Shown: one piece after another, positions 1-14,389 of the stretch | Layout: each line of letters begins with the position of its first letter | How positions within the stretch are numbered: the stretch's first letter is position 1 | From: an uncultured bacterium | Lineage (GTDB): Bacteria > Latescibacterota > Latescibacteria > Latescibacterales > Latescibacteraceae | Assembly (NCBI GenBank): GCA_964400815.1 | Contig: CAYNWJ010000001.1 | Location: 7,757 to 46,837 of the forward strand | Length of the DNA: 39,081 nt | Reading direction: 5' to 3' | Notes under the pieces: model-generated | The model's input: the letters and a program-made list of their open reading frames with translations, nothing else | Told to the model about the DNA's origin: nothing | Databases searched by the model: none | Position numbers and translations under genes: made by a program

Positions 1-99
1 GAAGTGACTCAAAAAACAGGCAATGATGTGTTGTGCCGCAACGACAATCTGCTCCGCCCCTCACCGGGCGGGGCAGTAACTATACCGGAGAGATCATGA
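1..99 (+). CDS. 3' end of an upstream ORF (partial, unknown function)
   Basis: Frame 1 is open from base 1 to TGA at 97-99, overlapping the next start codon (ATGA, 96-99). Confidence 0.4.
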   Translation, partial: EVTQKTGNDVLCRNDNLLRPSPGGAVTIPERS

Positions 100-776
100 A
101 AATACTGGCGATCGGCGCCCACCCCGACGACATAGAAATCGGCTGTGGCGGCTTCCTCGTAGAGCAGAAAGAACGTGGAGCCGATCTGTCGCTCTACGTC
201 GCCACCTATGGGGAGTATGGCGGGAACAAGGCAGTGCGGAGAGCAGAGCAGGTGAATTCTGCAATCATCATCGGCTCAGGAACCAACCTCGTGTTCGGCG
301 ACATCCCGTCTGAAAAGCTGGAGATCAGCCGGGACGTCATCTGGCTCCTCGAATCTCACATTGAGAAAGTCGATCCCGACGTAATCCTGACGCATGATCC
401 CGAAGACAATCATCAGGACCACCGGAACCTGACTGCTGTCGTCATGGTTGCGTCTCGCCACCGTCGGAACATCCTGTACTACGAGGGCTTCAGCACGACC
501 GCCTTCAGCCCAAGCATTTTCTACGAGCTGTTCCCCGACACTCTCGAAAAAAAGATTAATGTCCTCAGTTCGTTCAGATCACAGGTCAACAAGGTCGTCC
601 GGGGAGCCAACATGTCTGTCGAGGAAGCTGTCCGGGCCAACGCTGTCGTCCGTGGGATACAGGCCAGATCGCGGTATGCAGAAGCCTTCAGACCGGCACG
701 AATGATGGCGAGCGAACTCGCGTTTTACCTTCCCGGAAAAACTGAAGAAGAAGCTCACCTTCTGCAAGGCAGATGA
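96..776 (+). CDS. PIG-L/LmbE family N-acetyl-sugar deacetylase
   Basis: MKILAIGAHPDDIEIGCGG (HPDD motif), R.AEQ, DVILTH...D.HQDH, C-terminal YAEAF; GGAG RBS before ATG 96. Confidence 0.9.
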   Translation: MKILAIGAHPDDIEIGCGGFLVEQKERGADLSLYVATYGEYGGNKAVRRAEQVNSAIIIGSGTNLVFGDIPSEKLEISRDVIWLLESHIEKVDPDVILTHDPEDNHQDHRNLTAVVMVASRHRRNILYYEGFSTTAFSPSIFYELFPDTLEKKINVLSSFRSQVNKVVRGANMSVEEAVRANAVVRGIQARSRYAEAFRPARMMASELAFYLPGKTEEEAHLLQGR

Positions 777-1225
777 ATATGGCGGCGCCGAAACCAACAA
801 AAGCCGAGAAAGAACAGCGGGTAGCGGAAATCTACGAGCTTCTGCTCAAGCATGTCACACGCGCCCAAATAGTTCGATACTGTGCGAAAAGATGGGGGGT
901 TGGCGACCGGACAGCTGACAACTACATGGCCGCCGCCCGGGAGATGCTGTACGAGGAGACCTTGGAGGACGCCGAACGGAGCCGCCGCCGTATTCTCCGG
1001 GAGCTTGATTATCTCTACAGTGAGTCGCTCCGAAAGAACCGTGTCGATACCTGTCTGAACATCAAGCGTGAGCAGGCCCGTCTGCTCGGCCTCGACATCA
1101 CCAAGATCGACCTGACCGGAACCATGAAGAACGAGAACCACAACTACGACCACCTGACCGATGAGGAAGTCGAACGTGAAATCCAGCGTCTGCTCGCCAT
1201 CCGCTCCGGCGGAACCGGCGAATGA
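773..1225 (+). CDS. terS: Terminase small subunit (putative)
   Basis: 150-aa helical, HTH-like N-terminus; directly precedes TerL; C-terminal 'DHLTDEEVEREIQRL' is typical of TerS tails. Confidence 0.7.
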   Translation: MNMAAPKPTKAEKEQRVAEIYELLLKHVTRAQIVRYCAKRWGVGDRTADNYMAAAREMLYEETLEDAERSRRRILRELDYLYSESLRKNRVDTCLNIKREQARLLGLDITKIDLTGTMKNENHNYDHLTDEEVEREIQRLLAIRSGGTGE

Positions 1226-2672
1226 CATTCGGCACGATCTGGCCCTGCTCAGGGAGGAGCGCATCAGGCTCTCCCGCGCCACGTTTTGGGAGTTCTGCAA
1301 GACGCTCCACGGCGACTTCTATGCCGATGACCGTCCGCACCTGAAGCTCCTGTGTGACACCCTCCAGGGCCTGAATGAAGGCACGCTGCTCAAGCCCGAC
1401 GGCTCCCCGTACAAGAAGCTCATCATCAATATGCCGCCCCGCCACGGTAAGACCCGGACGCTGGTGCTCTTTTCCATGTGGGTGTTCGGGAAGAAGAAAA
1501 GAACCCGCATCATCGCCACGTCGTACAATGACGATCTCGCCCAGGACTTCTCCCGGTACACCCGTGACGGCATCAGCGAGGAGAAGCTTTTTCCGCACGA
1601 GATCGTCTATGCCGACATCTTTCCCGAGACCCGCGTTTCCCAGGGCAACGCCTCGTTCCAGAAATGGGCTCTCGAAGGTGAGTTCTTCAGTTACAAAGGC
1701 GCCGGCATCGGCGGCTCGATCACCGGCAAGGGCGGCGACATCACGATCATCGACGACCCGGTCAAAAGCGTGGAGGAGGCGTACAGCGACACGGCCCTCC
1801 AGAGGGTATGGGACTGGTACACCGGCACGTTCCTCTCCCGGAAAGAAGAAGGCGGTCTCGAGATCATCAATATGACCCGGTGGGCGAAGAAGGACCTTTG
1901 CGGACTCGTCCTGAAAAAGGACGGGGACGATAAGTGGTTCATCCTGAAGATGGAAGTCAAGGACCGCGTGACCGGCGAGATGCTCTGCCCCCCGCTCATG
2001 AGCAGCGAGAGCTACGAAGACAAGCGGAGTCTCATGGACCCGGCGATCTTCCTGGCGAACTACCATCAGGAGCCGGTGGACATCGAGGGCACGCTGTACA
2101 AGGAGCTGAAAACCTACACCGAGAAACCCGAGTTCGAGTACATCGACGCCTACATCGATGTGGCCGACAAGGGCACCGACTGGTTCTGCGGCCTCGTCTA
2201 TGGCGTCTTCCGGGGTGAAGCGTGGATTCTCGATGTCCTCTACACGAAGGCGGGCATGGAAGTCACCGAGCCCGCGACAGCGGACATGCTGTTCCACAAC
2301 AACGTCCGGGACTGCGTGAACGAATCGAACAACGGCGGCCGGTCATTCTCCCGGGCCGTCGAGCGCATCCTGTGGGAGAGGCACCAGACCCGGCGCGTCA
2401 CGTTCCACCCGTTTCATCAGTCGAGAAACAAGCTCTCCCGTATCCTCTCGCAGTCAACGTTCGTCATGGGTCACATCTACTTTCCGCACAACTGGAAGGA
2501 CCGCTGGCCCGACTTTCACGAGGCCGTCACCACGTTCCAGCGCGAGGGGAAGAACGAGAACGACGACGCCCCGGACGCCCTGACCGGCGTTGCGGAGCGG
2601 GTGAACAACTTCAAGCTCCCCGAAGACGAAAAGAAGAAGACCACCAGCAAGGCGGCCCTCGGGCTGCGGTAA
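1161..2672 (+). CDS. terL: Terminase large subunit
   Basis: Walker A INMPPRHGKT, GGSITGKGGD-IIDDP Walker B, MTRW coupling motif, YHQEP, nuclease D-ADKG.D and NDDAPDALT. Confidence 0.95.
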   Translation: MRKSNVKSSVCSPSAPAEPANDIRHDLALLREERIRLSRATFWEFCKTLHGDFYADDRPHLKLLCDTLQGLNEGTLLKPDGSPYKKLIINMPPRHGKTRTLVLFSMWVFGKKKRTRIIATSYNDDLAQDFSRYTRDGISEEKLFPHEIVYADIFPETRVSQGNASFQKWALEGEFFSYKGAGIGGSITGKGGDITIIDDPVKSVEEAYSDTALQRVWDWYTGTFLSRKEEGGLEIINMTRWAKKDLCGLVLKKDGDDKWFILKMEVKDRVTGEMLCPPLMSSESYEDKRSLMDPAIFLANYHQEPVDIEGTLYKELKTYTEKPEFEYIDAYIDVADKGTDWFCGLVYGVFRGEAWILDVLYTKAGMEVTEPATADMLFHNNVRDCVNESNNGGRSFSRAVERILWERHQTRRVTFHPFHQSRNKLSRILSQSTFVMGHIYFPHNWKDRWPDFHEAVTTFQREGKNENDDAPDALTGVAERVNNFKLPEDEKKKTTSKAALGLR

Positions 2673-2687: not shown

Positions 2688-4133
2688 ATGAACATCGGCG
2701 ACATCATGACCCTCGATGTGAAGAAGCGCATCGACCTGCTCACGAAGGACATCAGCCCCCATGAGCGGGAAACCCATTACCAGAAGTGGCAGGACGAGTA
2801 CGACGGGAAACACGAAATCCTCCGCAAGAAGGACAAGGACATCGGTGATCCAGCGACCGGCTCCGTCCAGACCGTCAAGACGGCCAAGGAAGTTGTCACC
2901 CTCCAAAAAAAGATCGTCCGCACGGCCGTATGGTTCCTGCTCGGCGAACCCGCTACCCTGATCCTGAACAACGAGGGAGACAAGTACGACAAGGCATTCT
3001 CCCTCATCACGGAAACATGGAAGCGGAACCGCCTCGACGATTTCAACAAGGCGCTCATGCGCCGTGTGAGCATCGAGACTGCCGCGGCCGAGCTGTGGCA
3101 TATAACCGGCGACAGGGTGGACACCGGGAAGAAGACCCCCGAAGGCAATCCCGTCTACCGGCTCGAGAACAAGCGGCTCCGGGTGATCCTGCTTTCCCGC
3201 CAGGATGGGTACTACATCTACCCGCACTTCGACGAGTATGGCGATCTCGACGCCTACACCGTCAAGTACGATGTCGAGCGTCTCGAGAACGACCAGCCGA
3301 AGAAGTACCCGCACGTGGACATCTACACCGCCGAAACGATCTACCATTACGTGAAAACCGGCACCGAATGGACGGAGACCACGGAGCCGAACCTGTTCGG
3401 CAAGATTCCGGTGATCCACTATGAGCAGGAGGCCCCTGAATGGGCCGACGTGCAGCATCTCATCGACCGCCTCGAGAACAAGATGTCGAGCCACGCTGAC
3501 ACGAACGATTACTTCGACAGCCCTGTGCTGAAGGTGAAGGGCAAGGTAGCGTCTCTCCCGGACAAGACCGAAGACGGAAAGGTGATCGTCCTCGAGGGCG
3601 AGCCCGGCGTTGACGGCAGGCTCGAATACGGCGACGCCGATTACATCACATGGAGCCAGTCCCCGGAGAGCATGAAGCTCGAATATGAGATGCTGAAGTA
3701 TTTCATCCTGTACCTGACGGACACGCCCGACATCGGCTTCGACAACATGAAAACTCTCGGGGCCCTGTCCGGGGCGGCCATCCGCCTGATGTTCCTTGCC
3801 GCCGAAGGGAAGGCCCGCTACAAGCAGGAGATTTTCGGCACCGGTTTCGCCCGCCGGATCAATCTTCTGAAGGCGATGCTTTCGACGGCATTCGTCGGCG
3901 AGGCGGCCAATCTCGATGAGCTCGACATCGAGGTGGCGTTCAACAGCGCACTGCCGGAGAATGTGGGCGAAATCCTCGAGAACCTGTCAATCGCCACGGG
4001 AGCCAAGCCCACGATCTCCCGGGAGACCGCCGTCCGCCAGAACCCTCTCGTGGACGACCCCGGAGAGGAGCTCACACGGATCGAGAAGGAAGAACAGCAG
4101 ACGATAGCCGCGGCGCAGTCGTTCGAACTCTGA
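2688..4133 (+). CDS. Portal protein (SPP1 gp6-like)
   Basis: 481 aa right after TerL; 'NLFGKIPVIHY', 'DYFDSPVL', 'LSGAAIRLMF', 'ISRETAV..NPLVDDP.EEL.RI' SPP1-type portal motifs. Confidence 0.9.
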   Translation: MNIGDIMTLDVKKRIDLLTKDISPHERETHYQKWQDEYDGKHEILRKKDKDIGDPATGSVQTVKTAKEVVTLQKKIVRTAVWFLLGEPATLILNNEGDKYDKAFSLITETWKRNRLDDFNKALMRRVSIETAAAELWHITGDRVDTGKKTPEGNPVYRLENKRLRVILLSRQDGYYIYPHFDEYGDLDAYTVKYDVERLENDQPKKYPHVDIYTAETIYHYVKTGTEWTETTEPNLFGKIPVIHYEQEAPEWADVQHLIDRLENKMSSHADTNDYFDSPVLKVKGKVASLPDKTEDGKVIVLEGEPGVDGRLEYGDADYITWSQSPESMKLEYEMLKYFILYLTDTPDIGFDNMKTLGALSGAAIRLMFLAAEGKARYKQEIFGTGFARRINLLKAMLSTAFVGEAANLDELDIEVAFNSALPENVGEILENLSIATGAKPTISRETAVRQNPLVDDPGEELTRIEKEEQQTIAAAQSFEL

Positions 4134-4145: not shown

Positions 4146-4541
4146 ATGAACAAGAAGCAGCGTAAGGAAGCCAAGAAGACCGTCGAGCGGTTCTTCACCG
4201 CATGGAGGTACTGTGATTGGGCGGAGATGGAGCGGTTATCCCAATGGGCATGGCGCTTCGCCAATGCCACGGAGTCTCTGGAGATGATCTATGACCTGTT
4301 CTCCTTCATGGTTCTGAGGCGTTTCAAGATCATATCCAGCGAAGTGAAGGGCGAGGCTATGATCGATGTTATCGCCATGGTTGAATACCAATACGAAGAC
4401 AGTGACGAGATTCGTAAACGCACCATCGCAGCCCGAGTGATATGCGAAGCCGCTCCGTATAAGCCGTCTCTCGACGGTGTATGGGGCGTGAACCCGATCA
4501 GCGTCATGAGGACGAAGCGCCGTGAACCTGTCAGGACTTGA
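4146..4541 (+). CDS. Hypothetical phage protein
   Basis: AAGGAG RBS, in operon between portal and minor head gene. Confidence 0.7.
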   Translation: MNKKQRKEAKKTVERFFTAWRYCDWAEMERLSQWAWRFANATESLEMIYDLFSFMVLRRFKIISSEVKGEAMIDVIAMVEYQYEDSDEIRKRTIAARVICEAAPYKPSLDGVWGVNPISVMRTKRREPVRT

Positions 4542-5643
4542 AAAAGAATTCGAGCAGGAGCATTTGAAGCGCATCTCCCGGCTCGTCGGTGGCGTGAATA
4601 TCAATCTGCACTCCGGTGATCCCAGAAGCGGCGCCGTCAACCGCATTCTGCTCAGGGGCGCGGAAACCCTGTCGAAGGACATCAAGAAGTTCCGGCTGAA
4701 GGAGCCACGATCCATTCACAAAGGCGCCTTCTACCGGGCGAACGCGGCCATCGAGAAACAGATCGCCCGCACGCTCCGCACGATGAGCACCGATCTCGAA
4801 ACCACCGTCCGCGACGCGATCGTCAGCGCGTGGGACCTCAACAACGAGAAGTGGGACGATGTCGTCGATCGGATGGCGAAGGGCGTGAAAGTCCCCACGG
4901 CAGTCATGGCGTCCATGCGCCAGCTCAATTACGCAGCGATGGGCGCCTTCATTGACCGGAAGATGGCGGGCATCGACCTGAGCGATCGCGTCTGGAACCT
5001 CGTCGGCCCGAACAAGGAGCTGATCGAGCAGTATCTCGGTTCCGGGATCGCCATGGGACGCTCGGCGCAGAAGATCAGCCTGGATATCCGGGAGATGCTC
5101 CGGGAGCCGCACCGCCTGTTCCGGCGCGTCCGGGACAAGACCGGCAAGCTCCGCCTCTCTGCCGCGGCGAAGGCGTATCACCCCGGATCCGGAGCCTACC
5201 GGAGCTCGTTCAAGAACGCCATGCGGCTTGCAGTCACGGAGACCAACATGGCGTACCGGATGAGTGACTGCACCCGGCGCCAGCAGCTTCCGTTCGTGCT
5301 CGGCATCCGGGTGAACCTGTCGAAGTCTCATCCCCGGTGGGACATCTGCGATTCGATGGCCGGCGACTACCCGCCCGCATTCGTCTTCAGCGGATGGCAT
5401 CCGTGGTGCCTTTGTTACACGACCTCGATCCTCATGGACAAGGACGAGTTCGTTCGGTACGCGAGAACCGGCAAGATCGATGGGCGGCGGTACATCCGGT
5501 CCGCTCCCCGGAAAAGCCAGGAGTACCTGGCATCCAATCTTCCGAAACTCAGAAACATGGAGAACAGGCCGTTCTGGTTCGATGACAACTTCACCATGGA
5601 AGGAACACTTCGAAAAGCAGTTGCCAAACGAGAAAGAGGTTGA
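4522..5643 (+). CDS. Minor head/head morphogenesis protein (SPP1 gp7/Mu F-like)
   Basis: LSDRVW, 'NAMRLAVTETNMAYR', 'DICDSMAGDYP..F.FSGWHPWCLC' Cys/His motif; position after portal. Confidence 0.8.
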   Translation: MNLSGLEKEFEQEHLKRISRLVGGVNINLHSGDPRSGAVNRILLRGAETLSKDIKKFRLKEPRSIHKGAFYRANAAIEKQIARTLRTMSTDLETTVRDAIVSAWDLNNEKWDDVVDRMAKGVKVPTAVMASMRQLNYAAMGAFIDRKMAGIDLSDRVWNLVGPNKELIEQYLGSGIAMGRSAQKISLDIREMLREPHRLFRRVRDKTGKLRLSAAAKAYHPGSGAYRSSFKNAMRLAVTETNMAYRMSDCTRRQQLPFVLGIRVNLSKSHPRWDICDSMAGDYPPAFVFSGWHPWCLCYTTSILMDKDEFVRYARTGKIDGRRYIRSAPRKSQEYLASNLPKLRNMENRPFWFDDNFTMEGTLRKAVAKRERG

Positions 5644-5647: not shown

Positions 5648-6616
5648 ATGAAGAAAACCCTCTCCATCATCTGCGCCCCCGGCCTCGACAACTTCCTCGC
5701 CTGGGCTCCGCGCCTCAAGGGCGAGTACGAAGTCAGCATCCATGCCGACGGCACGGCCCCGCACACTGTGGCGAACAGCGATATTATATGGCTCGAATGG
5801 GCGAACGAGACGGCGGTGCAGCTCACACGCATGATGGCCCAGGGCGTCCACCCGTTCGACATGACGGAACAGGAGGCGCGCCCGAAGGTCGTCGTCCGCC
5901 TGCACTCGTATGAGGCGTTCACGAACATGCCGGGCATGATAGACTGGTCTGTCGTCGATCACCTCGCCTATGTCGCCGACCATGTCCGGGAGATCGCCGA
6001 GGAGTACAACCCCTTTCTGGCGAACACAGGGTGCCGGTGCACCATCATCCCGAACGGTGTCGAGCTCGACAGTATAGAGCATCTCGATCCCGGCCCCGGC
6101 TTTGATATAGCCGTCGTCGGTTCTATCAATCACAAGAAGAACCCGGCGATGGCACTCCAGGTCATTCAGGAGCTGATCGAGGAATATGACAGCCGGTTCA
6201 GGCTCCATTGGGCGGGCGCATTCCAGGACCCCCGGTACGAGGTCTACCTGAGTCACATGGTGGAGCTGATGGAGCTCGAAGACCATGTGAAGTTCTACGG
6301 CCACGTCGATGACATGGACTCGTTCTGGCGGGGCAAGAACTATCTGCTTCACACGTCCGTCCACGAGGGCCACAGCTACGCGATCATGGAGGCGATGGCT
6401 CGGGGCATCCAGCCCGTGATCCACAACTATTACGGCGCCGACAGGCAGTACCGGGAAGAATGGCTGTTTGATAGTGCGAGATTCGCAGCCGAAAAGATTG
6501 CATTCGGCGAGAACTGCCACCGAAGGTTCCCATCACGGCCGTGGGTGGAGGAGAAGGGCTGGACGCTCGACGATCAAGTGGCGAACATCAGGAAACTGCT
6601 CGGAGGTCTGCAATGA
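5648..6616 (+). CDS. GT4 (GT-B fold) glycosyltransferase
   Basis: RLHSYE, IIPNGV, VGSINHKKNP, TSVHEGHSYAIMEAMARG (E-X7-E); GAGG RBS before ATG 5648. Confidence 0.9.
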   Translation: MKKTLSIICAPGLDNFLAWAPRLKGEYEVSIHADGTAPHTVANSDIIWLEWANETAVQLTRMMAQGVHPFDMTEQEARPKVVVRLHSYEAFTNMPGMIDWSVVDHLAYVADHVREIAEEYNPFLANTGCRCTIIPNGVELDSIEHLDPGPGFDIAVVGSINHKKNPAMALQVIQELIEEYDSRFRLHWAGAFQDPRYEVYLSHMVELMELEDHVKFYGHVDDMDSFWRGKNYLLHTSVHEGHSYAIMEAMARGIQPVIHNYYGADRQYREEWLFDSARFAAEKIAFGENCHRRFPSRPWVEEKGWTLDDQVANIRKLLGGLQ

Positions 6617-6852
6617 GACTGCTCAGGATCGTGTGGCTGTATGCTCTCGTTCTCTGGAGGTGGTTCTGCGCCCCGTTCGTCCTGCTCTACAAGCTCTATG
6701 TCACCGTCCGGCTGGCGATAGGGAAGTACGTGCTTTCATCACTCGACGACTGGATGTCCGATGCCGGATGGAAGCGGCATGAGCGCCGGCAGTTCTGGAG
6801 GGAGTTCGTGAAGACCCAATCCGCCCGCAACGAAGTGTTCAGGAGGCTCTGA
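6613..6852 (+). CDS. Small hydrophobic/membrane-anchored protein
   Basis: MRLLRIVWLYALVLWRWFCAPFVLLY hydrophobic N-terminus; overlaps both neighbours (ATGA / TGATG); GGAGG RBS. Confidence 0.6.
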   Translation: MRLLRIVWLYALVLWRWFCAPFVLLYKLYVTVRLAIGKYVLSSLDDWMSDAGWKRHERRQFWREFVKTQSARNEVFRRL

Positions 6853-7523
6853 TGGACAATGAAAAGATCGCCGCATTCTATGACTCGTTCCTCGAAAGGA
6901 TGAAGTACGACCACGAGCACGCGAACCGGCGGCATTTCGCCATATTCAATCATCTTGGCAAACGGCTGAAGGGACGCATCGGCCTGACAGTGCTGGACAT
7001 CGGCTGCGGCACCGGACTTTCATCATCGTTCATGGCCGACAACTTCAATACGCGCATCACCGCGGTCGATCTCTCCCCCGCCCTGATCGAGTTCGCCCGC
7101 GAGCACTCCGCCCATGAGAATGTCGAATATATCTGCGCCGACGCAGCCTCTCTCGATCTCGGGATGAAATACGACATCGTCGTCATGGCGGACTGTTTCG
7201 AACACTTCCCCCGGGATAGAATCTTCGATCTCAGAGCCGTCATTCAGGCGCACACGCACGATATGAGCGAGCTCTATATCAACATACCCTACGGCCCGTT
7301 TTCCGAGTTCATACGCCGCCACAGCCCTTCATCGATGCAGATCATCGACGAGGTGTATGATCCGGACTTCATCATTCGCTTCTTCATGGACATCGGACTC
7401 GTTCCGTCCGAGATCGAAGTCTACGGCATCGACACCTCCCAACCTCAGTACATGGCGGCATGGTTCGTCAACCGCCAGTATTTTACCCGAGAGGCAAAGA
7501 CCGCCCTCGGCCTGAAGGATTGA
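6852..7523 (+). CDS. Class I SAM-dependent methyltransferase
   Basis: VLDIGCGTG motif I, TAVDLSP, YDIVVMADCFEHF; AGGAGG RBS; no DPPY/PC DNA-MTase motif. Confidence 0.9.
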   Translation: MDNEKIAAFYDSFLERMKYDHEHANRRHFAIFNHLGKRLKGRIGLTVLDIGCGTGLSSSFMADNFNTRITAVDLSPALIEFAREHSAHENVEYICADAASLDLGMKYDIVVMADCFEHFPRDRIFDLRAVIQAHTHDMSELYINIPYGPFSEFIRRHSPSSMQIIDEVYDPDFIIRFFMDIGLVPSEIEVYGIDTSQPQYMAAWFVNRQYFTREAKTALGLKD

Positions 7524-7528: not shown

Positions 7529-7744
7529 ATGCAGAAAAAGTCCTTGACAGTGTCACGCAAGACGGGCATGATGACCGGTGTGAACGATACGGTGTCAGTC
7601 TATGATCTCGTGCGGGCAGTGAAAAACACGGCCGCCGACAAGTCCGTCATGACGAGTGACGGACGCACCTACTACGGCAAGGTGACATTGTGTATTCATG
7701 ATGGAGCCGTCACGCATGTGGAGAAGTATGAAACGATAAAGTGA
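7529..7744 (+). CDS. Small DUF2292 (YezD-like) protein
   Basis: C-terminal YGKVTLCIHDGAVTHVEKYETIK matches the DUF2292 pattern (YG.V.I.IHDG.V..IE..E..K); start uncertain (7529 or 7568). Confidence 0.6.
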   Translation: MQKKSLTVSRKTGMMTGVNDTVSVYDLVRAVKNTAADKSVMTSDGRTYYGKVTLCIHDGAVTHVEKYETIK

Positions 7745-7850
7745 GAACCCCTTGAGAGCGCGGGCCGCCCACGGTGGCAACATCCTCCCGTGATGTCCAC
7801 CGGAAGACGGCGGCCCGCATAGATTCATACAGAGCAGTACCCGAACAACG

Positions 7851-7892
7851 GGGCTGAGTGCTCAGGAACCATGAGCATTCGCCCTCTTTTTT
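7851..7892 (+). terminator. Intrinsic terminator upstream of scaffold gene
   Basis: GGGC-T-GAGTGCTCA / TGAGCATTC-GCCC stem, 7-nt loop, followed by TCTTTTTT. Confidence 0.7.
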
Positions 7893-7917
7893 GTGCCCAA
7901 ACAAGGAGATCAGCTCA

Positions 7918-8649
7918 ATGGCTTGGAAGACGGATGAGGAACGGACAGAGTACATCAGGAACGCCTTGAAGGAGGCGGGCTTGAGTCTGGAGCTCGTGTC
8001 GAAGATCACCGGCCAGGATGAACTGGCGGTCACGAAAGAGGTCATGAAGCTCGTGATCTCCGACGTTGATCGCCGGGTGAACAAGGCGGTGGAGACCACC
8101 ACCGAGAAGCTGAAGAAAGAAACCGGAAAGACGGATGAAGGCGGCGCTGCTCAGGCTGCTCAGACGGCTTCCGGCACACAGGCGACACAGGGGGCACCGG
8201 CAGATTCATCGCAACCTGAATTCGCCAAGATCATCGCCGACACCGTCGGCAACGCGCTCAAGCCGATTACCGATCGAATCGACGCCATCGAGAGGGAGAA
8301 GGCGGGGGCAAACAGGAGCTCGAAGATTCGGGACGCCCTGAAGGAGGCCGGACTGAGCGAGAGCTACGAGAAGTACATCACCGTCGATGACGAGGCCAAG
8401 ATCACGGACGCTGTCGAGGCATTCAAGGGTGACCTCCAGGCGGACAGACAGGCGGCCATCGACGAGGCGCTGGCGAAATCAGGCGTGCCGGCCCGGGGGA
8501 ACAACACGACCACGGTGTCGGAGGACAGCGCGAAAGACTTCGCCCAGCTCCGCAACAAGAAGCAGGTGAGCGGCGACGGAGATTTCCCGACCGTCGATGT
8601 GTTCGCCTACAAGGAAGCACCATCGCAAACAGGAGCAAGTAAGATATGA
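7918..8649 (+). CDS. Capsid scaffold protein (putative)
   Basis: Charged, helical, low-complexity Ala/Gln/Thr linker; lies before decoration and capsid genes; AAGGAG RBS. Confidence 0.7.
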   Translation: MAWKTDEERTEYIRNALKEAGLSLELVSKITGQDELAVTKEVMKLVISDVDRRVNKAVETTTEKLKKETGKTDEGGAAQAAQTASGTQATQGAPADSSQPEFAKIIADTVGNALKPITDRIDAIEREKAGANRSSKIRDALKEAGLSESYEKYITVDDEAKITDAVEAFKGDLQADRQAAIDEALAKSGVPARGNNTTTVSEDSAKDFAQLRNKKQVSGDGDFPTVDVFAYKEAPSQTGASKI

Positions 8650-9266
8650 GCCTCGAAATAAAGAAGGAGACCGGCACCCAGTACCATCCGGTGTTTCTGT
8701 CGATCCTCGAGGACATCCCCGGCGGTGGTACGCTGAAGACGGATCGCATCCCCTCCACGACAAAGATCATCAAGGCCGGTGCTCTGGTGAACGCCGATTC
8801 GACCACGGCCGGCCTGTTCAATCTCGTGAAGACAGCGAAGCTGAAGCGTACCCTCGGAACCGCCGCCTGTGTGACGATCTACGTCTACACGACCCACGAG
8901 TTCAAGGTGGGCGAGTATGTCGGCATCCAGGGACGGGGATCGGCCGCGACGATTGCAGCCATCACCCGGGCGACCGGCACGGACACCATCGTCTTCACTG
9001 CTGGCGGCGGAGGTCTGAATGCCACCGCCATCACCAGTACCGTCCTCGAGGAGTGCTCGGCGGCCGCCGTGACCGGCGCAGCCGTTAAGTACGCGGCAAC
9101 CGGCATCCTCAGAAACACCGCTCGTGTGCGGAACGACGATCTGAGCACCAAGGAGAACGTCGATGCCGCCGTTGTCGTCCGCGGCACGGTCAAGGAGAGC
9201 ATTCTCCCCTACTCCGTCACCACCGCAGACAAAACCGCCCTGACCGACCGGATCAGGTTCGCATAA
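8646..9266 (+). CDS. Head decoration/cement protein, Thr-rich
   Basis: Directly upstream of MCP; 'EDIPGGGTL', 'AAVVVRGTVKESILPY' ends typical of decoration proteins; about 32 Thr in 206 aa. Confidence 0.65.
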   Translation: MSLEIKKETGTQYHPVFLSILEDIPGGGTLKTDRIPSTTKIIKAGALVNADSTTAGLFNLVKTAKLKRTLGTAACVTIYVYTTHEFKVGEYVGIQGRGSAATIAAITRATGTDTIVFTAGGGGLNATAITSTVLEECSAAAVTGAAVKYAATGILRNTARVRNDDLSTKENVDAAVVVRGTVKESILPYSVTTADKTALTDRIRFA

Positions 9267-9284: not shown

Positions 9285-10397
9285 ATGTATCCGACACTGC
9301 TTACTGAGATCAACAGTAAGACTCTGACGGCGTACCTCACGGAACGAGTGTACGACAAGCTGTACTTCCCCCTGTTCTTCCCCTTCGAGTTCATCCCGAG
9401 CCTCACCTGGGAGAGCCTGATCGGAAGCAAGGGTCACCGGATCGCCGCCGATGTGGTCGCCTACGACACGTCTGCCCCGCTGAAGACCCGCCAAGTCGTC
9501 AGCAAGCTGTCCGGTGAGATTCCGGCCATCCGCACGAAGCGCAAGATGGACGAGAAGGACATCCTCACCTACGACATCCTGAAGAACATGGCGAACTCGG
9601 ACCAGCAGAAGATTCTCGATCTGGTCTACGGCGATGTGGATTTCGTGGTGGATGCCGTGACCGCCCGTATCGAGTGGCTGGCCCTTCAGGCCCTGAGCAA
9701 GTCCACGCTCACCCTGACGAAGACCAACAACGCCGGAATAGTCACAGAGTCGTCTGTCGATTTCCAGATGCCGTCCGCAAACAAGAAGGTGGAGTCCGCG
9801 GCGAACCAGTACTGGACGACAGGTGCCTATTCGACCAACGATCCCATCGGCGACATCGAGGACATGGTCGGCTATATGGCAGCCATCGGCTCCAAGCCCC
9901 GGTACATTCTCATGAACCTCACGAAGTGGCAGGCGTTCCGCACCTCCACCGCCGTTCAGAACTTCGTCATCCCGTTCGCACTGTACGGCGGAACGAAGGT
10001 GAAGCGGGCGCCCTCCCTTGCCGTGGCGAACATGGCGCTCCGCGAGGAGGGGCTGCCGGAAATCGTCATCATCGACACCCGGATCACGCTCGAAACGGAA
10101 GCCCATGTGCAGACCGCCTACGACCCGTGGTGCGATTCGTCATCGGCGGACCGATACGTCACCTTCATCCCCGACATGGTTTGCGGTCACACGTACTATG
10201 GCCCGATCGCGGAGGAGATCAGACCGCCCAAGCAGGTGACACAGGCGAAGAAGGGGCCCATCCTCGTCAGCAAGTTCTCGACGGAGGACCCGGTCGCCGA
10301 GTTCACCAAGGGCGAGATCAATGCCTTCCCCGTGTGGGAGAACGTCGAGCAGTGCATGATCCTCGACACCGAGTCCCACACCACGTTCGGAGCCTAA
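9285..10397 (+). CDS. Major capsid protein (lambda gpE-like family)
   Basis: 370 aa; 'AADVVAYDTSAPLKTR', 'GEIPAI', 'ARIEWLALQALS', 'DPVAEFTKGEINAFPV'; AGGAGGT RBS. Confidence 0.88.
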   Translation: MYPTLLTEINSKTLTAYLTERVYDKLYFPLFFPFEFIPSLTWESLIGSKGHRIAADVVAYDTSAPLKTRQVVSKLSGEIPAIRTKRKMDEKDILTYDILKNMANSDQQKILDLVYGDVDFVVDAVTARIEWLALQALSKSTLTLTKTNNAGIVTESSVDFQMPSANKKVESAANQYWTTGAYSTNDPIGDIEDMVGYMAAIGSKPRYILMNLTKWQAFRTSTAVQNFVIPFALYGGTKVKRAPSLAVANMALREEGLPEIVIIDTRITLETEAHVQTAYDPWCDSSSADRYVTFIPDMVCGHTYYGPIAEEIRPPKQVTQAKKGPILVSKFSTEDPVAEFTKGEINAFPVWENVEQCMILDTESHTTFGA

Positions 10398-10400: not shown

Positions 10401-10748
10401 ATGACGAACCTCGAGGCATTGCAGTCCCTGACGGAGTTCTCCGATACCAACCTGTTCACGAAAGTCATGACGGACAGGGGGGTGACGCCGGGGGACACTT
10501 ACGCGGCCGGCAATGCTCAGGTGATAGATCTCTGCCTTGCGGATGTCTATCTACGTCTGGCGGCAAGCCCGGACATATCCGAATACGGGCTGTCAGTGAA
10601 ATGGACTCGAGAGTCCCTGATGGCGGCCCGGAAAACACTCTACGACAAGTGGGGGCTGGCGCTGCCGGAATCCACGAGCCGAAGAAGCACTCCCGGGGTG
10701 ACGGGGAGACCCGTCACCGTCGGGGGAAAAACCTATCCCGCGTGGTGA
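10401..10748 (+). CDS. Head-tail adaptor (putative)
   Basis: 115 aa immediately after MCP; 'DLCLADVYL...SPDISE.GLSV.W...YDKWG'. Confidence 0.65.
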   Translation: MTNLEALQSLTEFSDTNLFTKVMTDRGVTPGDTYAAGNAQVIDLCLADVYLRLAASPDISEYGLSVKWTRESLMAARKTLYDKWGLALPESTSRRSTPGVTGRPVTVGGKTYPAW

Positions 10749-10751
10749 GCC

Positions 10752-11066
10752 ATGACGTTCGAGAGATACCCTCATTCGGCGACAGTCTCGTATGTCGCCC
10801 CCGGCACAAAGAGCGCAACAGGCGTCGTTACGCCCGGGACGCTGGCGACGGTCAGCATCTCGAAATGCCGGGTTGAGGTGAACAACTCACGTTTCGTTAT
10901 CGGCGAAAACGGGGAGCGAATCGAATACGCCCTGAGCGTCATCTGCCCGCTCTTGAGTGGAGTCGATTCAATCCCGAACGGAGCGAAGCTCTCCTGTGCA
11001 GGAAAAACCTATACCGTAGTCGAGATACCGCCGTTGCAGACCCACACCCTGATCCGGTGCAAGTGA
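10752..11066 (+). CDS. Head closure/stopper protein (putative)
   Basis: 104-aa beta-rich protein in the neck gene cluster. Confidence 0.6.
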   Translation: MTFERYPHSATVSYVAPGTKSATGVVTPGTLATVSISKCRVEVNNSRFVIGENGERIEYALSVICPLLSGVDSIPNGAKLSCAGKTYTVVEIPPLQTHTLIRCK

Positions 11067-11067
11067 C

Positions 11068-11514
11068 ATGAGCCCGATGAAACCCAAATTCTCGCAGAAG
11101 GCGGTCGCTGACCGCATCGACCAGTTCGTCGAGGACAAGCAGAAGCAGGCGTTCGAGACGCTGGCGTACATCGGCGAGACGATTGTCAACCGGGCTCGTG
11201 ATATGGCTCCGTTCGAGGACCAGACCGGCAATCTCAGAAGCTCGATCGGCTATGTCGTCATCGTGAACGGCGATCTGAAAAAGCTCGAAGTCACGAAGGC
11301 GAAGAAGGACGAGCGCGGCGCCGGTGTGAAACGCGGCAAGGACCTGGCGAAGGAGTTCGGGGAGAGATTCTCCAAGGGCATTGTCCTCGTCGTCTTTGCC
11401 GGAATGGAGTATGCGGCGGCAGTCGAGAGCAGGGGATATGACGTGATAACCGGAAGCGTTGAGACCCAATCGGCTCTGTATGCAATGCTGAAAGAGGAGC
11501 TTGGCCTCTCGTGA
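11068..11514 (+). CDS. Neck/tail completion protein (HK97 gp10-like)
   Basis: DQTGNLRSSIGY and AGMEYAAAVE motifs. Confidence 0.8.
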   Translation: MSPMKPKFSQKAVADRIDQFVEDKQKQAFETLAYIGETIVNRARDMAPFEDQTGNLRSSIGYVVIVNGDLKKLEVTKAKKDERGAGVKRGKDLAKEFGERFSKGIVLVVFAGMEYAAAVESRGYDVITGSVETQSALYAMLKEELGLS

Positions 11515-11909
11515 AAACCACCTACGACGTGCTCGATCACTTCTACACGGCGCTGAACGTCACCTCGGTGACATCACTCATCGACGGCGCCGTCTGGCGG
11601 CGGAAGAAGCCCCTCGGCCGGGAGCTGAAAGACATCGTCATCGTCACGCTCCCGATCAAGGGTGACGAGCACGACGTTCAGGAGGGCACGGTTGTCGTCA
11701 ACATCTTCTGCCCGAACCTCGACGGCGGGACACCGAACGAAACGGTGCTGAATTCCATCACGGATGCCGTGATCGCGGCGATCGAAGCGTACACGGCGGC
11801 GACGGAGTATTTCGGCACTGTGATTGTCAGCGAGAATACAATGCAGGACCAGGATGTCGAGGAGATGTCGTACTCGAGCATCAGGGTCAATTTCTATATC
11901 GAGAGTTAA
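11511..11909 (+). CDS. Tail terminator protein (putative)
   Basis: 132 aa, acidic, directly before tail tube; GTGA overlap with previous gene. Confidence 0.6.
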   Translation: MKTTYDVLDHFYTALNVTSVTSLIDGAVWRRKKPLGRELKDIVIVTLPIKGDEHDVQEGTVVVNIFCPNLDGGTPNETVLNSITDAVIAAIEAYTAATEYFGTVIVSENTMQDQDVEEMSYSSIRVNFYIES

Positions 11910-11920: not shown

Positions 11921-12424
11921 ATGGGAACCAAGCGGGCTGTCGGGCTCGAAAGCATCCTGATCGGTGCGGTCAACACGACCACCTATGCGATTCCGACCAC
12001 GCTCACGACCATCGCGAATATCGTTCCCGATACCGCCAAGCTGGCATTCGAGAATCCTGAAGCACTCCAGTTCTACGTGGAGGATTCGGACGATGTGGAT
12101 GTCGAGATCACCGGCAGCTCGAAGAAGGGACTCGAGTTCGCCACCTATGACATGAGCCAGGAGAATTTCGTTCTTGCCTTCTCCGGCACCACGTCGGGCA
12201 CGCTGTTCAGGGCGCCGGTCACGGCGACCGTCACTGTTCAGCGGGCCGTCCGCATCACCACGAAGGAGTACAACGGCTACCAGCTCCAGTTTGACATTCC
12301 GAACTGTTCGATCAGGGCGGGTGGTGAGCTGAAGTTCTCGAAGGCCGGCCCCGGCAGTATCACATTCAACGGAACCGTTCTGAAGTGCGGCGCCACGGCA
12401 CCGCTCGTCATGAGATACATCTAA
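11921..12424 (+). CDS. Major tail (tube) protein
   Basis: 167-aa beta-rich protein before the chaperone/tape measure genes; strong AAGGAGGT RBS; Thr-rich. Confidence 0.7.
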   Translation: MGTKRAVGLESILIGAVNTTTYAIPTTLTTIANIVPDTAKLAFENPEALQFYVEDSDDVDVEITGSSKKGLEFATYDMSQENFVLAFSGTTSGTLFRAPVTATVTVQRAVRITTKEYNGYQLQFDIPNCSIRAGGELKFSKAGPGSITFNGTVLKCGATAPLVMRYI

Positions 12425-12431: not shown

Positions 12432-12455
12432 GGGCGGAGAGAAGATGCTCCGCCC
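12432..12455 (+). terminator. GC-rich stem-loop after tail tube gene
   Basis: GGGCGGAG / CTCCGCCC stem; pyrimidine tail but weak U-run. Confidence 0.4.
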
Positions 12456-12480
12456 CTCTCCTTACCCGGAAGGTTGTGAC

Positions 12481-13056
12481 ATGGAGAACAACTCGAAAGC
12501 AACCGCGGCCACGCAGCAGAGGGCGTACGACGCCATCCTCGAGAAGGGCGTCGATTTCGACGTTGAGTTGGCCCGCCCGAACTGGCTTCACCGGATCGGG
12601 CTGCTTCCGAAAGTCCGAAAGTTCGTCATCAAGCCCCTGTATCTCGGAACCCTGTTCAGGGTCACGAAACTCATCCTCGAGATCGACACCGACGTGCTGA
12701 AGGAGGCCGATGGAAACCTCCACGCCATCGGAGTCGAGAGCATCGCCCGTCACAAGGACGGGCTGGTGAGGATCGTCGCCCTTGCCGTCACGAACGGCGA
12801 CCGGGAGCCCCCGAAGCGGCTGGTGCGGTTCCTCGACCGGAACCTGACGCCGAAGGACCTGCTCAGACTCGTCATGCTGGTGGTTCAGCAGATGGAGGTG
12901 CGGGATTTTTTGGCATGTATGGTCTCGATCAGGCAGATAAGCCTGAGCGGGGCCGGGAAGAAGGAGACCGGCCAGACGCCTCGAACCTCTGGCAGTCCAT
13001 CGGATGCCTCGTCAAGTATTACCGATTCGGTTGGCGAGACATACTGTGGGGCATAA
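12481..13056 (+). CDS. Tail assembly chaperone (gpG-like)
   Basis: Between tail tube and tape measure; contains slippery run GGGATTTTTTG. Confidence 0.75.
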   Translation: MENNSKATAATQQRAYDAILEKGVDFDVELARPNWLHRIGLLPKVRKFVIKPLYLGTLFRVTKLILEIDTDVLKEADGNLHAIGVESIARHKDGLVRIVALAVTNGDREPPKRLVRFLDRNLTPKDLLRLVMLVVQQMEVRDFLACMVSIRQISLSGAGKKETGQTPRTSGSPSDASSSITDSVGETYCGA

Positions 13057-13169
13057 GCTGGCCGAACCTCGTCATGCTGACGTGCTCGATCCCGAAGACG
13101 GACGACAAGAAGAACGACGCCGAAGAAATCACTGATTTACGAGAATTGGAGAGCCTGCTCGCGCTATGA
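12906..13169 (+). CDS. Tail assembly chaperone -1 frameshift extension (gpT-like)
   Basis: -1 frame relative to gpG opens after T TTT TTG (12906-12912); encodes LWQSIG...ILWGISWPNLVML..SIP; no clear RBS of its own. Confidence 0.65.
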   Translation, partial: FFGMYGLDQADKPERGREEGDRPDASNLWQSIGCLVKYYRFGWRDILWGISWPNLVMLTCSIPKTDDKKNDAEEITDLRELESLLAL

Positions 13170-14389
13170 AAACGGAAAAAAGACCACTGCTGAGCATCTG
13201 CATGATCGTCAAGAACGAGGAAGCCAACCTGCTTCGCTGTCTCGATTCCCTCCTGCCGCTGATAAACTGGCGTGACGACGAAACCCTCGAGCGCATGACC
13301 GAGTTGGTCGTCGTCGATACCGGCTCCACCGACAGGACGGTGAACGTGGCGAAGCGGTACACGGAGCGAGTCTACAAGAAGACGTTCGTCCCGTGGGACT
13401 TCTCGGCCGCCCGGAACTTCAGCACATCGAAGGCCCGGGGGGAGAAGATCATGATCGTCGATGCCGACGAGGAGCTCGCACAGCAGAGTATCTATCTCCT
13501 CGAAAACTACCTGATGAATCCCGACTGGAAAGAATACAAGACGCTGTTCCTGAAGATCAGGAACTACTACAAGGCCGACCTGAAGCAGTTCACCGAGATG
13601 CTTCAGCCGAGAGTGTTCGAGAACGACGGCAAGCCCATATACGAAGGCTCGATCCACAACAAGCCCCGCGCGATGGCGGCGTACCTGTTCGCCCCGGACG
13701 TCATCCTGAATCACTACGGATATCAGTTCGAGGGCAAGCCGGAGCTGTACAAGAAGAAGAACAGGGACCGGACGCTGCCGATGCTCGTCGAGAAGTATGA
13801 AGCCGATTCCGAAGACATTCACACACTGACCCATCTGGCGAAGACCCACTACGTCATGGAGAATCACGAGGGCGTTGTGGAGATCGGCGAGAAGTGGATG
13901 AAACGGATGGCGGAGACCAAGGTGGACGAAGGCTGGTTCGCCTTCTTCGAGGTGTTCGTGAACCTCGTCGCCTCGTATCTGGTGCTGGACCGTCCCGATG
14001 ATGCCGAGCGGGTCATGAAGGAAGCCGAGAAGTACACCGGCAGGCTCCTGAACATGTACTACTACCTCGGATTGTACTGGCAGTCGAAGGATGAGGCGAA
14101 GGCCGCCGAGTTCTACGAGAAGTGCGTCACCATCGCCAGTGAGGAAGGGAGCCTCTACGAGCTGCTCGTCTCGAACAACACCCTCATCATTCTGCCCCAG
14201 GTGCTGAACTGGCTGGCCGCCTATTACTACGGCCGGGGCGAATACATCAAGGCCGGGAACTGCGTCAACGAGGGCATCAGGATAAACGAGAACCGCGTCC
14301 CGCTCGCGTGGGACATCTGGAACCACCCCGACGTGCAGGGGAAGGCTCCCGGGGAATCCTGCCATGCCGATGAACGTACAGGGGAGTGA
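13166..14389 (+). CDS. GT2 glycosyltransferase with C-terminal TPR-like repeats (protein glycosyltransferase type)
   Basis: LSICMIVKNEE, VVDTGSTDRT, WDFSAARN, IVDADEEL (DxD), YEGSIHN, HYGY, then helical TPR-like region (YYYLGLY..AAEFYEKC). Confidence 0.9.
   Translation: MKTEKRPLLSICMIVKNEEANLLRCLDSLLPLINWRDDETLERMTELVVVDTGSTDRTVNVAKRYTERVYKKTFVPWDFSAARNFSTSKARGEKIMIVDADEELAQQSIYLLENYLMNPDWKEYKTLFLKIRNYYKADLKQFTEMLQPRVFENDGKPIYEGSIHNKPRAMAAYLFAPDVILNHYGYQFEGKPELYKKKNRDRTLPMLVEKYEADSEDIHTLTHLAKTHYVMENHEGVVEIGEKWMKRMAETKVDEGWFAFFEVFVNLVASYLVLDRPDDAERVMKEAEKYTGRLLNMYYYLGLYWQSKDEAKAAEFYEKCVTIASEEGSLYELLVSNNTLIILPQVLNWLAAYYYGRGEYIKAGNCVNEGIRINENRVPLAWDIWNHPDVQGKAPGESCHADERTGE

Follow-up and report, generated by a model that had tools for sequence, protein, structure and literature searches.

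The stretch of DNA described here, hereafter the window, is a 39,081-nucleotide segment of contig CAYNWJ010000001.1 (G000:C1:7757-46837) from an uncultured bacterium of the phylum Latescibacterota, the bin of which (4.56 Mb in 705 contigs, 90% complete) was recovered from a microbial-mat metagenome. Bases 1 to ~26,000 carry a co-oriented phage late region, among the genes of which lie four that encode glycan enzymes: a PIG-L deacetylase, a family 4 glycosyltransferase (GT4), an S-adenosylmethionine (SAM) methyltransferase, and a family 2 glycosyltransferase with tetratricopeptide repeats (GT2-TPR). An earlier note on this DNA had proposed that the four enzymes form a single pathway for glycosylation of the virion. 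This report concerns the relatives of these enzymes, their distribution, and the molecules that they may modify.

Gene Organization of the Late Region

The head part of the region begins with the PIG-L gene and continues with a putative small terminase gene (terS), the large terminase gene (terL), the portal gene, an open reading frame (ORF) of 131 amino acids designated g4146, and the minor head gene. These are followed by the GT4 gene, a small hydrophobic ORF, the methyltransferase gene, a DUF2292-like gene, the scaffold gene, g8646, and the gene for the major capsid protein (MCP). The tail part consists of four connector genes, the tail tube gene, a tail assembly chaperone pair, the GT2-TPR gene, the gene for the tape measure protein (TMP), distal tail genes, and an amidase endolysin gene. 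The window is best read as the late region, with the virion genes, of a siphovirus-like phage or prophage. The scan covered 47 ORFs of the window, with Pfam calls judged against curated cut-offs and with PHROG profiles used alongside (Table 1); the Pfam profiles confirmed the families that had been named for the four enzymes from the sequence. The chaperone pair is encoded in two overlapping frames, a layout that is kept in relatives.

The enzyme genes are joined to the structural genes by overlaps of 1-26 nt or spacers of no more than 5 nt. The PIG-L stop and terS start codons lie in a common ATGA (773-776). The ATG of GT4, at 5648, comes just after the end of the minor head gene at 5643. Another ATGA (6613-6616) holds the GT4 stop and the start of the small ORF, the stop of which overlaps the methyltransferase start as TGATG at 6852. 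The frameshift ORF of the chaperone pair ends in the ATGA (13166-13169) that starts GT2-TPR, and the last 26 nt of the latter (14364-14389) also carry the start of TMP. For PIG-L and GT4, the true starts (96 and 5648) lie later than those of the longest ORFs. Sigma-70-like sites numbered four, as compared with 5.3 in shuffled sequences, and none preceded an enzyme gene, although the promoters of this host may depart from that consensus. The profile scores and the junctions, read directly, thus bear out the earlier description of real, co-oriented genes that overlap or abut structural genes, and the promoter scan agrees, less firmly, with the description of genes lacking promoters of their own. 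Such genes would be expressed late.

Table 1. Features of the window and of the adjoining upstream stretch of the same contig (L003), with the evidence for each call (E-values; bit scores are given against the curated cut-off).
Feature	Position	Strand	Evidence and remarks
PIG-L/LmbE-family deacetylase	96..776	+	PF02585 2.1e-21, 77.2 bits vs 28.2; AHPDD and HQDH metal-site motifs
Putative small terminase (terS)	773..1225	+	position only, directly 5' of terL and overlapping it; no Pfam match; PHROG matches without terS annotation
Large terminase (terL)	1161..2672	+	phrog_30251 1.9e-126; PF03237
SPP1-type portal	2688..4133	+	PF05133 7e-56
g4146, conserved 131-aa protein	4146..4541	+	no family match
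Minor head / head morphogenesis protein	4522..5643	+	phrog_35295 6e-76; phrog_7625
GT4 (GT-B) glycosyltransferase	5648..6616	+	PF00534 4.5e-16, 59.3 bits vs 26.4; E-x7-E motif, HEGHSYAIME
Small protein, single N-terminal hydrophobic segment	6613..6852	+	no family match
Class I SAM methyltransferase	6852..7523	+	PF13649 (Methyltransf_25) 1.7e-18, 67.6 bits vs 27; VLDIGCGTG
DUF2292-like small protein	7529..7744	+	PF10055 1.1e-5
Scaffolding protein	7858..8649	+	PF14265; phrog_172; real start probably near 7918
g8646, 206-aa accessory head protein in decoration-protein slot	8646..9266	+	between scaffold and MCP; weak PHROG decoration/head matches
Major capsid protein (MCP), lambda-E-type	9285..10397	+	PF03864 2.1e-18; phrog_29 1.1e-52
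Four head-tail connector / tail completion genes	10401..11909	+	DUF6706, HK97-gp10-like, phrog_5377, phrog_5597
Probable tail tube protein	11921..12424	+	phrog_6767; position before chaperone pair
Tail assembly chaperone pair	12481..13169	+	G-like ORF 12481-13056 and overlapping frameshift ORF 12915-13169; phrog_15994, phrog_12247
GT2-TPR	13166..14389	+	PF00535 7.5e-17, 62.2 bits vs 23.3
Tape measure protein (TMP)	14364..17900	+	PF10145 8.1e-26; phrog_991
tRNA-Tyr	32117-32201	minus	
TolC-like outer membrane efflux protein (OEP), AcrB and membrane fusion protein (MFP) genes, with tRNA-Tyr	32-38 kb		
TAGT-family DNA glycosyltransferase	L003:5440-6186		PF20691 3e-9; phrog_842; 1.6 kb 5' of PIG-L

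The GT2-TPR Enzyme

By sequence, the best solved relative of the 407-residue GT2-TPR protein is GmaR (22ao; E 5e-22, residues 3-201), the flagellin O-GlcNAc transferase and MogR anti-repressor of Listeria monocytogenes. An AlphaFold model built on 23 sequences (pLDDT 87.7, pTM 0.83) contains an N-terminal GT-A domain of alternating strands and helices, followed by helical repeats at residues 192-374. Individual TPR Pfam models scored just below their cut-offs, and the repeat domain is seen in the fold model. The top full-length fold matches were ThuS and SunS (E ~5e-13, TMq 0.57-0.61); weaker matches (E ~1e-7) included TarS and TarP, which are wall-teichoic-acid enzymes, and RmlT. The DxD motif, D99-A-D101, is invariant in the 23 sequences and, like other motifs, is kept without change in viral and cellular homologues alike. 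The SunS model of NCBIfam, TIGR04195, gave 29.5 bits against a cut-off of 350, so that the protein is not assigned to this equivalog. The kinship with GmaR by sequence and with SunS and ThuS by predicted fold supports the placement of GT2-TPR in a lineage of glycosyltransferases directed at proteins or peptides, as the earlier note had supposed from the type of the enzyme.

Both kinds of relative share its architecture. According to one report (PMC9638930), the N-terminal domain of GmaR transfers GlcNAc onto flagellin, its TPR domain is the proposed recognizer of flagellin, and the enzyme works inside the cytoplasm, where its substrate is an abundant protein that forms filaments. The phage protein resembles it in having a homologous N-terminal GT2 domain followed by a TPR domain, although GmaR is longer (637 residues) by virtue of linker and anti-repressor domains that the phage protein lacks, and the phage gene lies between a tail chaperone and the TMP gene rather than beside a flagellin gene or in a flagellar regulon. 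SunS and ThuS (7msn, 7msk), the S-glycosyltransferases of glycocins, likewise combine a GT-A domain with C-terminal helical repeats and use a peptide or protein acceptor and a nucleotide-sugar donor. Their sequences, however, are only 16-20% identical to that of GT2-TPR, and the genes near the latter include no glycocin precursor or exporter.

Homologous Enzymes in Bacterial Flagellin Islands

The closest cellular homologues of GT2-TPR in GTDB genomes are only 24-44% identical to it. The 80 best of these loci were surveyed, with flanks of up to 10 kb: flagellin genes were present in 29 of them, and a phage MCP, TMP, portal, or terL gene in none. The adjacency of GT2-TPR and flagellin genes was confirmed by coordinates in two complete chromosomes. 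Paenibacillus naphthalenovorans (L004) carries, in order, a flagellin gene, a small ORF, a GT2-TPR gene, and a gene for a fusion of TPR, GT4, and Methyltransf_25 domains. The GT4 domain of this fusion is 31% identical to the GT4 protein of the window over its full length (E 2e-52); the match of the window methyltransferase to the fusion is weak (23%, E 4e-6). In a metagenome-assembled genome of the Desulfobacterales (L063), the order is GT4, methyltransferase, GT2-TPR, and flagellin, and the first two are each 34% identical to their phage counterparts (E 7e-27 for the methyltransferase). Strong GT4 homologues occurred in six of the 80 best loci, and five of these six contain flagellin.

Because a homologous trio sits beside flagellin in both L004 and L063, the view of the phage GT2-TPR, GT4, and methyltransferase as a recognizable flagellin-glycosylation unit is supported, as far as homology can indicate. 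The enzyme set is the same and its parts are homologous. In the phage, unlike in these islands, the genes occupy two separate hot spots of the virion operon with no adjacent flagellin, and the enzymes are separate proteins instead of the TPR-GT4-methyltransferase fusion of L004. The tailoring and nucleotide-sugar genes of these islands vary, as has been described for the islands of Geobacillus (PMC5109656).

Linkage and Variation in Viral Relatives

Searches of IMG/VR yielded 116 GT2-TPR relatives, with 24 loci 42-53% identical over their full length. In these loci, which were selected by their GT2-TPR gene, the chaperone pair lies 5' of that gene in 23 of 24, and TMP follows it in each of the 21 that continue beyond the gene. 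The chaperone pair is either adjacent or separated from GT2-TPR by inserted ORFs, namely a g4146 homologue, a 120-aa ORF, HNH or LAGLIDADG endonuclease genes, or an ORF of 900-1000 aa. Within this viral clade, TPR domains are 51% identical, as compared with 19% to flagellin-linked homologues, while the corresponding values for the catalytic domain are 60% and 38%. A TPR domain that is conserved among viruses and divergent from its flagellin-linked counterparts is consistent with a new, conserved acceptor.

To keep the trait itself out of the selection, loci were also collected by capsid protein; there were 91, which fell into 59 clusters at ≥95% MCP nucleotide identity. The tail site, which separates the chaperone pair from TMP, is covered in 38 capsid-selected clusters and holds GT2-TPR in 30; the head site, between the minor head and scaffold genes, is covered in 32 and holds glycan enzymes in 26. 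Both sites, which lie ~7 kb apart, are covered in 25 clusters, of which 20 have both parts of the system, five have neither, and none is discordant. In the negative clusters, the gaps contain only small or unannotated ORFs, with no glycan family among them. On a capsid tree, the best topology requires three changes of state, of which well-supported branches force only one. The co-occurrence that the earlier note had suggested examining in related phages therefore held for GT2-TPR and the head cassette; it did not extend to PIG-L, which was found in none of the five near-complete system-bearing relatives (CheckV 89-100%, 48-52 kb).

The content of the head cassette varies among relatives. Besides GT4 with a methyltransferase (with or without the small ORF), the site may hold Glyco_trans_1_2 with FkbM, a second or further GT2, a UDP-sugar dehydrogenase, an epimerase with a radical SAM protein and a GT2, or a DegT aminotransferase with a GFO/IDH/MocA oxidoreductase and a hexapeptide acetyltransferase. 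The dehydrogenase together with the aminotransferase, oxidoreductase, and acetyltransferase set matches the Wbp-type pathway to di-N-acetylated uronic sugars. GT2-TPR stays while the cassette is swapped, which suggests a fixed priming step and an outer glycan that diversifies. Homologues of the small ORF (6613..6852) adjoin GT4 or the methyltransferase in L098, L209, L223, L224, L230, L234, and L254, and DUF2292-like homologues lie 3' of the methyltransferase in relatives, so that this gene travels with the methyltransferase.

Among the near-complete relatives, a tyrosine integrase gene was found in one of five, and not in the 100%-complete record; the search did not include serine integrases. 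Lysogenic conversion is unlikely for the four relatives without a tyrosine integrase, and a role in it is, judged by gene content, probably not the function of the system.

Beyond the clade, 39 further viral clusters encode a GT2(-TPR) homologue that is 24-43% identical to that of the window. A head, connector, or tail gene lies no more than two ORFs from it in 24 of the 39, L111 included, and these 24 span the phrog_212, phrog_1005, phrog_138, phrog_10, and P22-type portal lineages. With no random-gene baseline computed, this figure shows recurrence and not enrichment; placement of GT2(-TPR) genes by structural genes may nevertheless be widespread across capsid lineages.

Several other genes recur in these operons. 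LAGLIDADG and HNH/NUMOD genes occur in the structural operons of relatives (L084:3125-3880, L087:2569-3831, L084:11189-11806, L085:17-343), one of them between GT2-TPR and TMP. Large proteins without a Pfam match are encoded between the chaperone pair and GT2-TPR at L084:6663-9695 (1010 aa) and L085:735-3464 (909 aa). Homologues of g4146 take either of two places, after the portal gene or directly 5' of GT2-TPR (L087:9660-9986, L088:4468-4824, L196:13944-14270, and others), and they are also present in relatives without GT2-TPR.

PIG-L and the Pre-terminase Module

The best solved relative of the PIG-L protein is a BshB-type GlcNAc-malate deacetylase (6p2t, E 1e-9), and the BshB1 model of NCBIfam gave 73.4 bits against 182.5, so that the protein is not this equivalog. 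Among viral relatives of the system, one head cassette (L200) contains a weak PIG-L fragment (tblastn 31%, no Pfam match). The seven closest viral PIG-L homologues are 25-30% identical and occur in two contexts. In the first, represented by L111, which has a P22-type portal, and L259, PIG-L accompanies a hexapeptide acyltransferase, GT4, and a methyltransferase among portal and capsid genes. L111 has GT2-TPR, PIG-L, hexapeptide transferase, and GT4-like genes amid those for portal, capsid, and adaptor, and a GT2(-TPR) homologue lies 2-5 kb from PIG-L in L111, L262, and L263. The second context is that of L260, an unrelated phage, in which the order is g6280, PIG-L, WbqC-like, ParB-like, TAGT, terS, and terL.

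A similar set of genes precedes the terminase genes of the window. The upstream stretch of the contig encodes Gam, DnaD/DnaC-like loaders, a single-stranded DNA-binding protein, RusA, a ParB-N-like protein, TAGT, the ATPase-like g6280, and MazG; the contig stops short of the left end of the phage, which is therefore missing. The pre-terminase module proper (L003:4730-7716 and window 96-776) comprises ParB-N-like, TAGT, g6280, MazG, an 82-aa ORF, and PIG-L; TAGT is directly preceded by the ParB-N-like gene, with MazG on its other side. No dioxygenase or hydroxymethylase gene was found in this phage sequence, which lacks its left end. Dioxygenases that modify DNA bases have been described with ParB-like partners (PMC13229309). 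In another report, phage DNA-glycan clusters adjoin base-modifying enzymes and may hold sequential glycosyltransferases and nucleotide-sugar enzymes (bioRxiv 10.1101/2023.12.21.572611).

The ParB-like, TAGT, and PIG-L genes may form a system for amino-sugar hypermodification of DNA, as gene content suggests, and PIG-L may belong to it because its neighbourhood is common to the unrelated L260. Whether PIG-L acts on protein-linked N-acetylhexosamine (HexNAc), on a DNA-linked sugar, or on both is about evenly balanced. The proposal of a single four-enzyme pathway accordingly found support for GT2-TPR, GT4, and the methyltransferase, which are united by the flagellin loci and by their co-occurrence, and not for PIG-L, given its absence from the near-complete relatives and the context in L260.

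Proposed Glycosylation of Virion Proteins

O-glycosylation of virion proteins by a captured flagellin-type system, consisting of GT2-TPR, GT4, and the methyltransferase, is considered the best explanation of the locus, and the balance of probability tilts modestly in its favor. The three enzymes would have been captured from bacterial flagellin glycosylation islands into two fixed hot spots, GT2-TPR between chaperone and TMP, and GT4 with the methyltransferase between minor head and scaffold. The TPR domain would select the protein acceptor, and the enzyme, drawing on a UDP-sugar in the cytoplasm, would start the glycan on Ser/Thr, probably with a HexNAc. GT4 would add another sugar, and the methyltransferase, as an O- or N-methylase, would methylate the glycan. 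Exposed proteins of the virion would be the most likely acceptors, singly or together, with the capsid protein, the tail tube, and g8646 as candidates. PIG-L may tailor the glycan and equally may serve the upstream ParB-like/TAGT module. The sequence itself shows the identities of the genes, their close packing against structural genes, the homology to protein-directed glycosyltransferases, and the co-occurrence; any role of the glycan in shielding or adsorption is inferred, as are the acceptor, the sugars, and late expression.

The candidate acceptors were compared in several ways. Ser and Thr make up 20% of g8646 and 19% of the tail tube. The g8646 fold model (pLDDT 78.7) had no match in the PDB at E ≤0.001, and BFVD returned two uncharacterized proteins; because the fold search gave no annotated match, the label of decoration protein denotes position only. 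Prediction of a complex between GT2-TPR and the tail tube, both supplied as alignments, scored 0.00 against a mark of 0.32 and counts neither way.

A number of observations weigh against virion glycosylation. All of the enzymes score below the equivalog cut-offs of NCBIfam, and donor and acceptor are thus unassigned by family, as is the substrate class of the methyltransferase. A Ser/Thr-rich C-terminal tail is absent from MCP, the tail tube, and g8646, and alignments of the three between relatives with and without the glycosyltransferases revealed no insert or Ser/Thr tract specific to the former. The public sequencing runs that contain the stretch are three DNA runs of one microbial-mat study, with no RNA run among them. 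Since supported branches of the capsid tree force a single change, the co-occurrence of the two sites may rest on very few events. The head site is a general insertion site, which in the near-complete L244 also hosts N6/N4 (L244:3742-4410) and MT-A70 (L244:7247-8170) DNA methylases, and in L084 and L087 homing endonucleases, so that position alone is no proof of a virion target. Other points concern alternative targets: the host bin encodes a flagellin, which keeps flagellin among the candidates; the sequential glycosyltransferases and nucleotide-sugar enzymes may be matched in DNA-glycan clusters, as noted above; the phage shares four genes of its pre-terminase region (g6280, PIG-L, ParB-like, and TAGT) with L260; and PIG-L itself is missing from the five near-complete relatives.

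The candidate acceptors also differ in size among relatives without the glycosyltransferases. In one such cluster (L237, L240), the tail tube has an extra C-terminal domain of ~85 residues (255 aa vs ~170; ~10442-11200 in L237), and in several negative clusters (L235, L237, L247, L178, L179), the g8646 homologue has ~310 residues as compared with ~200-220. One may wonder whether protein domains and glycans are alternative surface decorations, a pattern that is inconsistent across the negative clusters.

Alternative Targets

The alternative that survives best, and is nonetheless unlikely, is hypermodification of DNA, in which some or all of the enzymes would build a sugar chain on a modified base of the phage genome and so protect it from restriction. 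The chain would be primed by TAGT, extended by GT4 or GT2, and tailored by PIG-L and the methyltransferase. TAGT lies 1.6 kb 5' of PIG-L with the ParB-N-like and MazG genes, ParB-like proteins have been described as partners of base-modifying dioxygenases (PMC13229309), and L260 repeats the combination of g6280, PIG-L, ParB-like, and TAGT before the terminase genes. Known DNA-glycan clusters, as described in the same preprint as above (bioRxiv 10.1101/2023.12.21.572611), may also contain sequential glycosyltransferases and nucleotide-sugar enzymes, and DNA methylases are found in the head hot spot of L244. The upstream ParB-like/TAGT/MazG genes, perhaps with PIG-L, resemble clusters that couple a 5mYOX/TET or ThyS-family enzyme with glycosyltransferases or contain TAGT. 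GT2-TPR, GT4, and the methyltransferase, in contrast, adjoin no base-modifying enzyme, and packaging and head genes separate them from TAGT. No 5mYOX/TET, ThyS-family, or C5-methyltransferase gene was found in the window or in the 7.7 kb upstream, where the left end of the phage is missing. TAGT, the thymidylate-synthase family, and Tet_JBP were each found in none of the five near-complete relatives, the Tet_JBP search having had no positive control, and the host bin (90% complete, with the left end of the phage missing) gave no Tet_JBP or ThyA-family match. The nearest relatives of GT2-TPR, moreover, are glycosyltransferases of proteins or peptides and flagellin-linked genes. The earlier judgement that the layout is unlike that of DNA-hypermodification loci consequently holds for the trio, which occurs without TAGT in all five near-complete relatives, and gives way at PIG-L, the surroundings of which share the TAGT context.

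Modification of host flagellin or of another host protein, for which the captured system would have kept its original specificity and which might block superinfection by flagellotropic phages or alter motility, is rather improbable. The characterized member of the family acts on flagellin (PMC9638930), 29 of the 80 best cellular loci lie beside flagellin genes, and the host bin encodes flagellin on contig C75 and has no GT2-TPR homologue of its own closer than E 1e-6. The enzyme genes of the window, however, are translationally coupled to late structural genes without a promoter-like site of their own, and modification of flagellin late in a lytic cycle would bring no obvious benefit. Four of the five near-complete relatives lack a tyrosine integrase, with serine integrases outside the search, and the TPR domain is far better conserved within the viral clade than between it and the flagellin-linked homologues.

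Least probable by some way is an envelope glycan moron that alters lipopolysaccharide, capsule, or another surface polymer, in the manner of prophage TarP or gtr, and thereby changes receptors or stops adsorption to debris: the weaker fold matches of GT2 to TarS, TarP, and RmlT, the small membrane-anchored ORF between GT4 and the methyltransferase, and the Wbp-type nucleotide-sugar pathways in the cassettes of relatives speak for it, but the ORFs scanned in the window and relatives included no member of the GtrA, GtrB, Wzx, Wzy, or polyprenyl-phosphate transferase families (a difference from gtrABC loci that the earlier note had remarked on and that held for GtrA and GtrB among the 47 ORFs scanned in the window), all three enzymes appear soluble from their sequences, the best matches are protein or peptide glycosyltransferases with a TPR acceptor-binding domain, and the genes lie within the late operon.

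Relation to Known Virion Glycosylation

Glycosylation of actinobacteriophage virions was reportedly described by Freeman and colleagues in Cell Host & Microbe in 2023. In the passages of two later papers that cite work of this kind, glycosylation of the virion by phage-encoded glycosyltransferases is presented as shown for actinobacteriophages only and as altering antibody recognition (cited in PMC12619734, PMC11256854). The glycans of Che8, Corndog, and others are reported to sit at the C-terminal ends of the subunits that form capsid and tail tube (cited in PMC12619734, PMC13313380, PMC11256854). Those phages are described as encoding glycosyltransferases, in many cases together with a methyltransferase, that decorate the virion, and the proposed system of the window combines such enzymes. 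The enzymes, however, are not detectably homologous: in tblastn searches at E 1e-5 of 50,697 phage records, GT4 had no match and GT2-TPR had eight partial matches, none of them from Mycobacterium phages. The putative host also differs, being a diderm of a small phylum. The earlier note had cited, as a precedent, actinobacteriophage glycosyltransferases encoded among structural genes; this does not apply to the Che8-type phage Maravista, the glycosyltransferase genes of which are described near the 3' end of the genome (PMC11256854), whereas those of the window are interspersed among structural genes. A literature search, limited to one library, turned up no account of glycosyltransferases of the flagellin type encoded in the structural operons of phages.

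Extended beyond the window, the explanation by virion glycosylation would mean that phages repeatedly captured flagellin O-glycosylation machinery and retargeted its TPR-guided initiator to the virion, giving rise to glycan "serotypes" outside the Actinobacteria, probably in phages of diderm hosts. This broader proposal is tentative and stands somewhat short of even probability; as part of it, the swappable cassette may supply whole nucleotide-sugar pathways, the products being rare di-N-acetylated or uronic sugars. If the reading of the window as a virion glycosylation locus is right, virion glycans are primed by a different enzyme lineage, that of the flagellin- or peptide-type GT2-TPR, and the trait belongs to an environmental phage clade of at least 30 capsid-distinct clusters. 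A hypervariable glycan would further imply that adsorption, defence sensing, grazing, or stability exerts selection on the surface of the virion. The enzymes would constitute a compact, soluble, cytoplasmic kit for protein O-glycosylation with defined candidate acceptors, which could serve glyco-engineering, and the upstream ParB-like/TAGT/PIG-L set hints at an amino-sugar modification of DNA not yet described.

A crAss-like locus (L258:3901-8597) encodes, beside the muzzle gene, a hydroxyproline-arabinosyltransferase-like glycosyltransferase, APS kinase, a GDP-mannose dehydratase-type enzyme, and PIG-L, possibly another glycan set of a structural module, with sulfation included.

The Phage-Host Junction

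On the 3' side of the lysis genes lie AAA_5, DUF7192, and DUF932 genes, then tRNA-Tyr, then an efflux operon of the resistance-nodulation-division (RND) type, and the junction of phage and host DNA falls exactly at the tRNA-Tyr gene. Contigs of two public runs laid over positions 24000-37000 were short and of low depth, and none bridged this junction; their summed depth was ~40 at tRNA-Tyr and 3-6 on either side. No integrase gene adjoins tRNA-Tyr. Integration of the phage at tRNA-Tyr is plausible, with a chimeric join as the alternative, and both integration and the linkage to this host are unconfirmed because no contig bridges the junction. The host is probably a diderm, because an efflux operon with a TolC-like OEP lies beyond the junction, an assignment that rests on one assembled junction; a search of the lysis region for further support found no spanin or lipobox. 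GT2-TPR was found in none of the 12 other genomes of the host order and in none of the 167 others of the phylum (168 species genomes).

Other Features of the Window

The right arm, from the lysis genes to the tRNA (27023-32049), encodes DUF6166, an AAA_5/CobS-like ATPase (phrog_249), DUF7192, DUF932, and phrog_24512 proteins. The protein encoded at 18350-19141, 3' of TMP, consists of two tandem PF23140 domains (podophage GP4 fiber I protein gp80 domain, E 9e-76), and many relatives that bear GT2-TPR share this protein. Two GC-rich inverted repeats, with coordinates assigned by eye, punctuate the operon. One lies at ~7760-7816, in the 113-nt gap that precedes the scaffold gene (GCGGGCCGCC...GGCGGCCCGC), and the other at ~12432-12455, just past the stop codon of the tail tube gene (GGGCGGAG...CTCCGCCC); both may be attenuators or processing sites that tune the expression ratios of the structural genes.

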